From contig CAVSHF010000005.1 of NCBI GenBank assembly GCA_963727805.1, positions 96,001-160,000 on the forward strand: a stretch of 64,000 nt of DNA, given 5' to 3'. The stretch is from an uncultured Nitrospiraceae bacterium (GTDB lineage: Bacteria; Nitrospirota; Thermodesulfovibrionia; Thermodesulfovibrionales; Dissulfurispiraceae). This document shows, one piece after another, positions 23,453-27,539 of the stretch. The notes under the pieces are model-generated. The model saw only the letters and a program-made list of their open reading frames with translations. It ran no database searches and was not told the DNA's origin. A program made the translations under genes and the position numbers. Position 1 is the stretch's first letter; every line of letters begins with the position of its first letter.

Positions 23453-23617
23453 ATGGCAAGCAAAATTGCATCAAACTCAATTTCTGAACCGCAATGGATG
23501 ATTCAATGCGACGTCATTAGGTATAATCTGCAGATCCGTCAGGATTCAAAGGAGCAACTCAAGAAGGAAGCTTTAGAACGAGAGATAGATGTGAGTTCTT
23601 ACATTTGCGATCTTTGA
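23453..23617 (+). CDS. Possible small ribbon-helix-helix-like protein or remnant (54 aa)
   Basis: Manual translation MASKIASNSISEPQWMIQCDVIRYNLQIRQDSKEQLKKEALEREIDVSSYICDL*; below the ORF-track cutoff. Confidence 0.35.
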   Translation: MASKIASNSISEPQWMIQCDVIRYNLQIRQDSKEQLKKEALEREIDVSSYICDL

Positions 23618-23633
23618 AAATTCCAGTCAGGTT

Positions 23634-25761
23634 TCCGGGTAGGAGCAGCGATTGCTCGCCACTCCCCCCACAGACCCGGACGAGCCCGATTAAGGCATCC
23701 GGTTCGTCAGTAACAAGAGGCATACAGCCTCTGGCTAACTAAACGGATTCGACCCGTTTAGCGCATAACTTTGCTGACCTGCATGGTTTAGATATCATGG
23801 ACTATTCGGGGCGACGGCAGTGGGAACAGCCGCTCCAGCTTTGGGAATTCATCCTCCCAATTCATCGATCCCTTATTGCTGCGACGACTCAGCCAGTAGT
23901 GCCACGCCTTCCGTACATGCCTGTAGACAAGCAGCAACTTACGGTAATTGCCTCTGATGCCGTAATATTGGTAGTGACCTTTTAACTTAAGGGTTAGAAC
24001 ACGACATTGTTCCTTAAGCGGCTCATGTCGGTGTTCCCGACACCACTCCCAAGCGCGCTTCATGGCCCGGCGCAGCCTTTTCTTGGCTGTTTGCCGCTTT
24101 ACTATCCAGTACCCCCGCCGCGTCTTCGCCCAGTAGTGCGTAAAACCCAAAAAGTCAATGCTCCCATTTTCCTCAGGGTCGCTCTTGCCTTTTGGCCTTC
24201 CGAACCTAACCAGCTTCGTCTTTGTCGGGTGTATCGTTAGCCCGTACTGTTGAAGTCTCTCAGTCAGAACGGGCAATATCCATTGTGCATCAGATTCGTG
24301 TTCGCATCCGATTAGAAAGTCATCGGCAAAACGAATCAGAAAGCTCTGTCCCTTAATGCTGGGCTTCACTTCCTTGACATACCACTCATCCAGCACATGG
24401 TGTAGGAATATATTGGCCAGAATCGGCGATATGACTCCGCCCTGCGGCGTGCCCTTCTCTGGGTATGTCAGAGTTTCCCCTTCTATTACCCCGGCATTCA
24501 GCCATTTGCCGATTAGCCGTATTATTCCTCCATCGTTGACCCTTTGCCTGATTATTTCCAACAGCCTGCCGTGATCGATATTATCGAAATAGCCTTTGAC
24601 ATCCGCATCCACTATCCAGCCGATGTTCCCTTTCACGCATTTCTGTTGAAGCTCGCTTAACGCCTGATGCTGGCTATGGCCGCGTCTGAAGCCGTGAGAG
24701 AAGGCGAAAAAGTCGCTCTCATACACTGCCTCAAGGAGCATCGCTACCGCACGTTGAACTACTTTGTCTTCAAACGTCGGAAGTCCTAACGGCCTTTCCC
24801 CTCCGTCATCCTTAGGTATCCACACCCGGTTTACAGGCGGAGCATGATACCGTCCTCCCTTGAGTCGTGTGTGCAGCTCCCGTAGATTTTCTTCGAGGTT
24901 TGATGCGTATTCTTCTGCTGTGACCCGGTCTATACCGGGCGCAGCGTCTTTTCGGGTCAGCCTGTAGGCTTCCCGCAAGAATTCCACATCTACGTGGTGC
25001 GCCAGCGTAGTGAACACCATCTCCGGATACCGGATGGCCTGCGCTGCAATCCACCGAAGTTTCGTTGATACGGTTTGTGAGTTCGAAGCCTCTCCCATAT
25101 TTCCTCTCGGTGAAACGTTATACCCGGCCTCGCCTTCCCTTCAGTGGGTCCCTTGGTCCTCGGTTCCCCACCTTCCCGGCCCGCTGGGGCCTTCGGTACT
25201 ATGCTCGGCTAAGACTGCCTCATGTCCATCCCTAGTCTCTTCGTTTGTCACTCGATTCCCGGTACCACGTTTGCTCTCTGTCTTCGTTCGTCGATGTGCG
25301 AGAGCCCTCACCGACGCCTGGGGCTTTTGTTCTTCCGGTCGCCCTCTTCCCTTCCGGTTCTCAACGTGGAGACATGCGGCCCTCCCAAGTTCCCGATCTA
25401 TCCCTTTGAATGTATGCCCTGCTCTCAGACCCCGGTGGTGTTCTGATGCTCGCCATTGCGCATTCAGAACTGCTGTCTTCCAGTTGTCCGAGACTGTCGA
25501 CTTTCCCTCCAATGCCCTGAAGGTTATCTTACTGACCACAATGTCAACGATTTCGGGGCTCACTAACACGGCCTACATTCTCGCTACACCCAGCTCCGCA
25601 CCTCCCCTCGCGAGGACGCACGCGGGTTCGCTTCCGACCTGTTGGCTAAGCTTTGGCCGGATGGGACTTGAGGTTTTCCGCCTCTCACCCATTGGATAGC
25701 AACAGCAAATTTCATCTCCTTTTCGCGAGATTCCCGATGCCTTGGATTTACCTTGGCGCGA
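23634..25761 (-). mobile_element. Group II intron (ribozyme plus En-minus RT); boundaries approximate
   Basis: Domain V GAACCGGATGCCTTAATCGGGCTCGTCCGGGTC (23705-23673, minus), then a DVI hairpin ending CTACCCGGA; ~660 nt of non-coding sequence 5' of the RT ORF. Confidence 0.9.
23788..25098 (-). CDS. ltrA: Group II intron reverse transcriptase/maturase
   Basis: APGID, RPLGLP, SHGFR, GTPQGG..SP, RFADD, FLGF, domain X; no HNH endonuclease domain. Confidence 0.95.
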   Translation of the reverse strand: MGEASNSQTVSTKLRWIAAQAIRYPEMVFTTLAHHVDVEFLREAYRLTRKDAAPGIDRVTAEEYASNLEENLRELHTRLKGGRYHAPPVNRVWIPKDDGGERPLGLPTFEDKVVQRAVAMLLEAVYESDFFAFSHGFRRGHSQHQALSELQQKCVKGNIGWIVDADVKGYFDNIDHGRLLEIIRQRVNDGGIIRLIGKWLNAGVIEGETLTYPEKGTPQGGVISPILANIFLHHVLDEWYVKEVKPSIKGQSFLIRFADDFLIGCEHESDAQWILPVLTERLQQYGLTIHPTKTKLVRFGRPKGKSDPEENGSIDFLGFTHYWAKTRRGYWIVKRQTAKKRLRRAMKRAWEWCREHRHEPLKEQCRVLTLKLKGHYQYYGIRGNYRKLLLVYRHVRKAWHYWLSRRSNKGSMNWEDEFPKLERLFPLPSPRIVHDI

Positions 25762-25975
25762 CGGCCACTTATTCCAATTTAGTTCGGATGCCGGACAGAC
25801 TTATTTAATATGGCGATCATATTGCGCCCCAGAGAATGCGCCATCTCAGGTCTCCAGTACACTTTATAACCATGCATACGGAAACTTCTCGACAATCAAT
25901 GACTAGCTGATATGTATTAAACCTGTCAAGTGCCGATAGTCGGTGTTTTCTTATCATGACCTCCTTACTGGATCA

Positions 25976-26162
25976 TGCATTTGGGTCAGAACAGCAGCGA
26001 TAAACGACGGTAGATCACTCTGATATACGCGGGTTGGATACCGCATGACTTGTCTTCGTCGTGGAGTTGCCTCTCTCTACTTTCGTGGGTTTGCCTGTAA
26101 AAAGGCTCCTCATGCAGTCACCGAGGGTTCTCCCAACCGGCTGCTATCCTGGCCGAAATGCA
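25976..26162 (-). ncRNA. Predicted bridge/seek RNA of the IS110 element
   Basis: 23-bp closing stem enclosing two stem-loops whose internal-loop segments match the target and donor sequences (see findings). Confidence 0.8.
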
Positions 26163-26252
26163 CTCCTGTCGGATTAATGTGCATAGAAGCAAATTCATGC
26201 TTCCGGAGCACTGATAAATAACAACTGTTCTATTATTGTAAGCATCATTATG

Positions 26253-27377
26253 TTATGCGACCGTCACTGCAGTGTTGCTCTTTCCCATAATCTCACGACC
26301 AATAGCCCAAATGAATCCTGCCAACTCCCTTGCCACCGCAGTGCATGCTTGCACCTTTAGTTTCCCTTTTTGCATCAGATGCCAGTATCGGCTACATAAC
26401 CGTTTTTGGGCTTTCCATGCAATCGCTTGTACAGCTTCACTGGTCTTTTCTGCCTTTCGCTGGAGGTGAGCTGTTTTTCGCGCCGGCAAACGATAGCTCC
26501 AAGACGCCTCTACAAGTAACCTGCGGACATGTCCATTGCCTGTTTTGGTAATCCCTCCTCTTTTTTGGCGATTGCCGCTTGAATCCTCGCTCGGTACTAA
26601 TCCAAGATACGCCATCAATTGTCGGGGACTCTCAAAACGGCTTATATCTCCTATTTCTGCTACTATAGTCATAGCCGTTACAATGCTCACTCCCCTTAAT
26701 GCCATCAGGGCTTCCACTACAAGCCTCATCGACCAGCTCTCAAGCGCTTTCATTATCTCTTGTTCCACAGCTGTCACTCGTCCCTGAAGGTGTCTTACTA
26801 CATCCACATACTCTTGAAACACGATCTGCTGGATTGGACTTTCAAAGCGGACCTCTTCCATCCAGCGGAAATGTGCTTGGGTCCATTTGCTGTCACCGGC
26901 ATAGACCTTCTTGTTCCGCAATAAAAAACCGCTTAACCGTTGCCGTGCGCGTCGTTCCATGGTCTTCATATCCTCACGCATCCTGGTTAGGTCCCGCATA
27001 GCCTCTTGTTGTTCATCCGGTACCCACACTGCCGTCAGTTCATTCGCCCGGAGCAAACGAACCAAAGACACTGCATCGCGTCGATCTGTCTTCACTCGAT
27101 CTCCCGCTTTCTTCGGGATCAATGAAGGGGCTACCACATCGCACCGATGCCCCATGTCGGTTATTTGCCGATAGATGCCATATCCGCAAGGCCCAGCTTC
27201 ATAACAAAAAACAGCCTTACTTCTCGCTGGCACTACTTTCTTTACCAGCTTCGTTATAGCTTCGGTTGTATTGGCAATCTCCCCATAGTATAGGGGTGTC
27301 CCATGCTTCTCGGCGGTTGCAACTGCTATTGTTTCCTTATGTACGTCCATGCCGATAAATGTGCTAAAATTCTTCAT
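26253..27377 (-). CDS. IS110-family DEDD transposase/recombinase
   Basis: GMDVHK, CYEAGP, KTDRRDA (DEDD); GLVPSEDSSG (catalytic Ser region); ITKTGN. Confidence 0.96.
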   Translation of the reverse strand: MKNFSTFIGMDVHKETIAVATAEKHGTPLYYGEIANTTEAITKLVKKVVPARSKAVFCYEAGPCGYGIYRQITDMGHRCDVVAPSLIPKKAGDRVKTDRRDAVSLVRLLRANELTAVWVPDEQQEAMRDLTRMREDMKTMERRARQRLSGFLLRNKKVYAGDSKWTQAHFRWMEEVRFESPIQQIVFQEYVDVVRHLQGRVTAVEQEIMKALESWSMRLVVEALMALRGVSIVTAMTIVAEIGDISRFESPRQLMAYLGLVPSEDSSGNRQKRGGITKTGNGHVRRLLVEASWSYRLPARKTAHLQRKAEKTSEAVQAIAWKAQKRLCSRYWHLMQKGKLKVQACTAVARELAGFIWAIGREIMGKSNTAVTVA

Positions 27378-27473
27378 AACCTGTCCTCCTTAATTGTGGC
27401 TCTGGGCCTTTGGTTTCCTACCTTAAAGCTTAACCCACGTTCTTTAAGGTTGGACAGGTTTAATACATCATGT

Positions 27474-27539
27474 CTACTTAAAGTCATCGCCACAGAGACA
27501 CGGCATATCATACAAGCTTTCTTCCAGAAATCCAGACCA
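27474..27539 (+). repeat. ~66-bp dispersed repeat, copy 1
   Basis: Differs from 36789-36855 by 3 substitutions and 1 indel. Confidence 0.9.

Follow-up and report, generated by a model that had tools for sequence, protein, structure and literature searches.

A predicted two-loop guide RNA at the 3′ end of an IS1111-type IS110-family insertion sequence from an uncultured Nitrospiraceae bacterium

The element, its recombinase and its surroundings

The window analysed here, a stretch of 64,000 nucleotides from an uncultured Nitrospiraceae bacterium, carries an IS110-family insertion sequence of IS1111-type anatomy on the minus strand at 25909-27475, with the left AG counted inside the element and no duplication. 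The ends were set by two siblings in the same genome (~83% identity) and 64 two-ended elements; the element itself is single-copy in its genome. The recombinase gene (26253-27377, minus strand) encodes a protein of 374 aa with PF01548 and PF02371 domains, which passes NF033542 at 268.8 bits (cut-off 140). D11, E60, D98 and D101 are all present, together with S267 in GLxPxxxSSG, and the same combination of D/E/D/D plus a serine is reported as catalytic in IS621 (PMC11208158). The DEDD RuvC domain and the Tnp20 domain with its catalytic serine identify the protein as an IS110-family recombinase, and the IS1111 motif GL-P----S(T)G is found as GLVPSEDSSG at residues 259-268. Its length lies beyond the range of 330-350 aa of the IS1111 recombinases (PMC11187229). 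Named kin stand among the IS1111 entries in the protein list of the Siddiquee source file, apart from IS1111 in matrix order. A sequence search of structures returned three distant entries only, and no solved structure was found for this branch.

Sub-terminal inverted repeats of 16 bp, with 100% identity between the arms, are set in by 7 nt at the left end (27453-27468) and by 3 nt at the right (25912-25927), both on the minus strand. Their length fits the 7-17 bp of the IS1111 group (PMC11208160). The extensions beyond the repeats are AGACATG on the left (7 nt) and ATC on the right (3 nt), and the absence of an extra duplication is IS1111-type. A 3-bp right extension was reportedly described for the IS1111 group by Partridge and Hall in 2003. 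The left extension agrees with the 7-bp rule for this group (PMC11187229). About 345 nt of non-coding DNA lie 3′ of the recombinase gene vs about 100 nt 5′ of it, and the long 3′ region is an IS1111 trait. AG is present at both junctions of the element. The search for left ends demanded AG, so the invariance of the left core among relatives is there by construction and is not a finding. The reading frame, the inverted repeats and the catalytic residues are intact as judged from the sequence.

An outward-facing -35 hexamer TTGACA is located at 25924-25929 (minus strand) near the right end and a predicted -10 hexamer CATGAT at 27467-27472 (minus strand) near the left. Joining of the ends puts the two 18 nt apart, as in a predicted circle-junction promoter. 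The spacing of TTGACA from the left-end hexamer is 17-18 nt in 59/64 elements, and CATNAT is present in 60/64. A linear promoter scan found no promoter for the element, as expected if the promoter is split across its ends. The assembled contigs of sequencing runs X1-X4 and X8, which cannot show absence, contained no empty site and no circle junction.

The left target half, TAAGT, is at the end of a repeat that is dispersed over the genome (27476-27618, minus strand) and gave 43 matches there at E<1e-3 (0.16% of the genome with margins). This repeat hosts every one of the genome's three clade members, with the siblings P1 and P2 inserted some 55 bp upstream of the position used here. The repeat copies shared no consensus fold, their DNA-fold z averaged about 0, and a clear codon pattern was lacking. 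Since neither fold nor codon signal was present, an attC-like or coding reading of the repeat was unsupported.

Several other features were observed around these repeats. Promoter-like TTGACT/TCGACT-16-TATAAT occurs in several copies, and the repeat is also present in same-genus genomes and on the contig of relative L093. A third position in the repeat is interrupted by an element starting with GTGCGCC (G000:C3:2247404-2248047, C5:61350-63436), which is group II intron-like and of which the C3 copy is short, without a long reading frame. Sibling P2 (G000:C3:2255838-2260949) is interrupted by an insert of 3.5 kb, which has short inverted ends and contains three reading frames (185, 161 and 408 aa). 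In the window, a group II intron encoding a 436-aa RT/maturase lies at ~23615-25765 (minus strand), ~140 bp from the right end of the element. Two more copies of this intron are found on C3 (99.4% identity), and a contig of run X4 appears to have its flank without the intron.

Fold and guides of the predicted RNA

The 3′ non-coding region contains a predicted bridge/long seekRNA (25973-26165, minus strand), in which an outer stem surrounds a target loop (loop 1) and a donor loop (loop 2). The arms of the closing stem, 26140-26162 (5′) and 25976-25998 (3′), pair at 21/23 positions (19 Watson-Crick, 83%, and 2 G-U), exactly as read in the first-pass annotation; the six RNA segments quoted there were likewise all located where they had been placed. 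The fold check proposed in that annotation was run, and the region 25970-26170 outperformed all its shuffles (-70.7 kcal/mol, z -4.43, 0/200 shuffles as good). Among the aligned relatives (62 distinct rows), 42 of the 59 consensus pairs showed two-sided change. No Rfam family reached gathering score in the RNA region, where two chance-level matches were returned (E 3-5), and the RNA motifs were not found in the parts covered of the supplements of Durrant et al. 2024 and Siddiquee et al. RNA run X8 yielded only fragments of the conserved donor loop, 35-59 nt long, which any relative could supply and which were not taken as expression.

All four guides are on the minus strand. In loop 1, the top-strand (right) target guide GTGACTG with a core-facing CA (26113-26121) predicts AG-CAGTCAC, and the bottom-strand (left) target guide is AAAGTAG (26077-26083). 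Loop 2 holds the top-strand donor guide (26046-26053) and the bottom-strand donor guide TATATCAG (26020-26027). The match to the top strand lies 5′ of the one to the bottom strand, which is the order of IS1111 seekRNAs. The template of six guide bases followed by ATG, proposed earlier for both loops, is present in this RNA and turned out to be a trait of a sub-lineage, not a general one (66/78 RNAs have CT and 8/78 TT at the core-facing columns). Nine relatives (L086, L089, L095, L099, L105, L106, L110, L111, L113) have an extra segment of ~27 nt in the inner hairpin of loop 1 with the guides unchanged, and this hairpin reads as a place that tolerates insertions.

Covariation of the loop-1 guides with the flanks had been set beforehand as the refutation test, and it was found to be strong, on both strands and in register only. 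The relatives comprised 80 loci taken from 550 confirmed candidates and the 3 clade members of this genome. Of these 83 elements, 80 had downstream DNA, 78 gave RNA matches, 64 were two-ended and 62 had usable flanks, from which one element per distinct guide pair was retained (n=46). Over its six variable bases the top-strand guide matched the right flank at 4.63/6 positions vs 1.80 when shuffled, and over its five the bottom-strand guide matched the left flank at 3.20/5 vs 1.87, with 0/5000 permutations as good in either case across the 46 guide pairs, counts that overstate the significance because the relatives are not independent. Shifted registers were near null (1.13-1.43/5 and 1.59-2.07/6); their scores were reached by 11/5000 permutations for the right flank at +1 and by at least 218 for the others. 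Core position 2 also covaried. A TT guide went with an AA right junction in 6/7 fully read elements, the exception being L016. In L024, L047, L055, L062, L064 and L066, with TT at the guide core, the right junction reads AA and the left AG, which suggests that the left G is donor-derived in TT-guide elements and that the crossover would resolve within or to the left of the core.

Poor matches between guide and flank were found at L009/L010, L013 and L045/L046, with 4/7 at L093. The right flank of L009 and L010 repeats their own RNA-stem sequence AAGGGCTTGCTGTATGGAGA, suggesting that this end is rearranged or misassembled. At L045 and L046 the right flank resembles their own RNA just past the left target guide (ACCAGGGCAGCT), and an insertion into the RNA gene of another copy is possible.

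The siblings offer a contrast that does not rest on permutation counts. P1 (85% protein identity) and P2 (83-85%) have their donor loop in common with the element of the window. Their target guides are GAAATCT and ACTCTAG, and their insertion site, GTCTAG-ATTTC, spells those guides. P1 and P2 thus read as natural retargeting within one genome. The earlier proposal of an intact RNA-guided recombinase with an AG core is supported by this retargeting and by the guide/flank covariation, at the level of predicted function.

At the donor loop, the reported agreement with the element's own ends was reproduced (right end 7/8, left end 5/6). The bottom-strand donor guide equals the right end in 48/64 elements; it differs at the junction's last base in 8/64 and otherwise in 1/64. 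Eight right junctions read ATATCAA, and L015 (ATCTCAG) mismatches its own end. The guide changes with the right end in 7/7 ATACCAG cases, probably one lineage, and in ISPye17 donor guide and right end change together at three positions (ATGAGAG). Covariation of the bottom-strand donor guide with the right end is thus seen in two lineages. It is also the most conserved of the guides, and the stems of loop 2 are near-invariant. The top-strand donor guide (CAAGTC) is mismatched at core position 1 and did not track left-end variation among the 64 elements; its GAC match at the left end is conserved. Donor binding by loop 2 is therefore likely, with a weaker case than target binding, since the bottom guide covaries and the top guide is only conserved.

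Register of the guide and the insertion site of the element

In loop 1, 66/78 RNAs have a top-strand guide of 6 nt followed by CT; this RNA has 7 nt followed by CA. The one-base shift of register is found in only 3/78 aligned RNAs, this one, L001 and L002. A metagenome scan for the same-register pattern gave 33 matches, 16 of which were non-elements and were dropped; one of the 17 elements was without a right end. The right flank was fitted at 6-7/7 in 15/16 of these relatives, from 6 distinct guides. Most of the same-register elements occupy palindromic REP-like sites. Since the same-register relatives fit their flanks, the guide is taken as GTGACTG and the programmed target as AAAGT-AG-CAGTCAC. 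The preferred target had been given as AAAGT-AG-CAGTC. Its register was upheld by these 15/16 relatives and by the flanks of near-identical copies in run X2; its length was revised, the top-strand guide being 7 nt and not 6. The exact loop-1 pattern was found in this genome only, among 401 genomes of the phylum.

The site occupied in the window departs from this target by one base. The left flank matches the bottom-strand guide at 6/7, in agreement with the first-pass annotation. The AG core and right target half (25899-25908, minus strand) read AG-C-TAGTCAT, one base off the guide register, and the right flank matches the 7-nt guide at 1/7 in register. The 1-nt bulge proposed earlier for this side holds: with one DNA base looped out the match is 6/7 (7/7 with an rG:dT wobble), a fit that a random genomic 8-mer achieves at a frequency of 0.0053 (0.0018 with wobble). 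A near-identical element is present in run X2, from another metagenome; the single difference in its RNA contig, at 26067, falls outside the guides. Three more right junctions from this run, AG-CAGTTTT, AG-TAGTGAA (two contigs merged into a consensus) and CG-GAGTCAA, keep AGT in register. These flanks may belong to a sibling whose right end is the same. As the flanks of the X2 copies fit without a bulge, the site in the window is a one-base outlier.

An unoccupied copy of the repeat at C3:779571 ends in AGCTAGTCAC, so the bulged spelling probably predates the insertion; the copy of relative L127 ends in AGCTAGTC. Tolerance of target insertions is suggested by the off-targets of Durrant et al. 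2024 (PMC11208160). One target base was most likely looped out when the imperfect site in the window was used. L145 and L144, both ISPye17-like and with the same target guide, differ by two additional bases that separate core and right flank, which again hints at off-register insertion within the clade.

Proposed working, alternatives and relation to known systems

We consider the locus, with a probability of about 0.93, to be the guide-RNA end of an IS110-family element of IS1111 type whose recombinase frame is intact, the RNA likely being a two-loop bridge RNA. By analogy to ISEc11 and IS621, the element would excise as a circle, and the joined ends would create the promoter TTGACA-18-CATGAT, from which recombinase and RNA may be transcribed. 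The circle junction ATATC-AG-ACATG would be held by loop 2 and the target AAAGT-AG-CAGTCAC by loop 1; strand exchange at the AG core would fall to the composite DEDD/serine site and leave no duplication. Transcription, circle formation, binding and strand exchange are thus proposed by analogy. More tentatively, and at less than even odds, the clade may use two natural top-strand guide registers (6 nt+CT+A; 7 nt+CA/CT+T), the 7-nt form going with palindromic or repeat-end targets and inserting across a one-base bulge, and siblings with the same donor loop being retargeted ~55 bp apart in one repeat.

The alternatives address separate questions, and their likelihoods do not sum to one. A short processed loop-1 RNA could pick the target while the protein reads the ends at the sub-terminal repeats and loop 2 serves as scaffold. 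The short 82-96-nt species is indeed the main bound RNA of IS1111 members (Siddiquee et al., PMC11187229), and the top-strand donor guide shows a core mismatch and no covariation; against this, no guide is more conserved than the bottom-strand donor guide, whose changes follow those of the right end in two lineages, and the loop 2 stems hardly vary, which makes the scaffold role unlikely. Somewhat less doubtful, yet still improbable, is that the bulge was never tolerated: the insertion would have occurred in register and a flank base been added afterwards, the pre-insertion allele not being AG-CTAGTCAT. The three additional X2 junctions keep the register and no empty allele was seen in the contigs of runs X1-X4 and X8, as such a history would have it. 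The bulged spelling is nevertheless found in element-free members of the repeat family (AGCTAGTCAC, AGCTAGTC), and the published off-targets suggest insertion tolerance (PMC11208160).

The remaining alternatives concern the guides themselves. If the core-facing columns of the guide had mutated from CT to GC once the element was in place, the element would be a dead remnant; its single copy, the CT in 66/78 RNAs where this RNA has GC, and the lack of an exact AAGTAGCAGTC site in the genome would agree with this. The shifted register recurs with matched flanks, however, the near-identical X2 element has identical guides and several flanks, and frame, repeats and catalytic residues are intact, so that decay appears very improbable. 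That a terminator-like or end-related hairpin carries accidental short matches has a negligible chance. The matches are of only 6-8 bases, and no Rfam family fits the RNA; the fold statistics, the sibling sites, the donor-guide tracking and the covariation all oppose it, and the register-specific guide/flank covariation refutes it. The bridge-RNA reading is the one retained.

The nearest described relative is ISPye17 (ISfinder; ISCARN28/ISEc45/ISPye17 'YEAGP' clade), compared via L144, a Paracoccus plasmid protein which agrees by eye with the ISPye17 entry in the 45 N-terminal and 25 C-terminal residues compared (Siddiquee source data). Its recombinase is 52% identical, and its 3′ end, in which the loops are laid out alike, fits the profile of this RNA (E 8e-21). 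It differs in its target guides, in its donor end (CATGAG-AG vs CATATC-AG here) and in the shorter outer stem region matched. The ISCARN28-labelled row 954 of Supplementary Table 1 (PMC11208160) is identical by eye in the Tnp-domain segment and has ~12 differences in ~144 residues of the RuvC segment. ISCARN28 itself is one of six elements with a bridge RNA and four guides predicted computationally (Durrant et al. 2024, PMC11208160); its protein is more distant, and the comparison with this cluster covered protein segments. The clade is thus already described, with the same RNA family in ISPye17 and a bridge RNA predicted for ISCARN28 in 2024.

ISEc11, ISPa11, ISKpn4 and ISPst6 (PMC11187229) are alike in having the RNA 3′ of the gene, sub-terminal repeats, a 7-nt left extension, a junction promoter (predicted in the present element), the top-then-bottom guide order and a repeated host target. 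IS621 and ISCro4 (PMC11208160, PMC11208158) share DEDD plus catalytic serine, two programmable loops (by prediction in the present element) and a two-base core, the AG here being the reverse complement of the CT of IS621; they differ in carrying the RNA in the left end, in the opposite guide order and in short repeats, and sequence similarity to them is weak (E 1e-6 and 2e-7). The element is likely an intact and naturally reprogrammed representative of the bridge-RNA recombinases that were described in 2024, not a new type of system. No experiment on the clade was found in the literature covered, which included parts of PMC13626964 and PMC13604230; the orthologue screens of Perry 2025, Pelea 2026 and Na 2026 may include a member.

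Bridge recombinases serve as programmable tools for DNA rearrangement; those engineered in the literature covered, IS621 and IS622/ISCro4, are left-end types. The right-end clade offers dozens of natural guide-target pairs, which indicate where and how to reprogram. If the two-register reading is true, it would supply a ready rule set and a candidate compact AG-core bridge recombinase of IS1111 type. No new principle is involved; the clade extends the toolbox and its rules of register, core and bulge tolerance.
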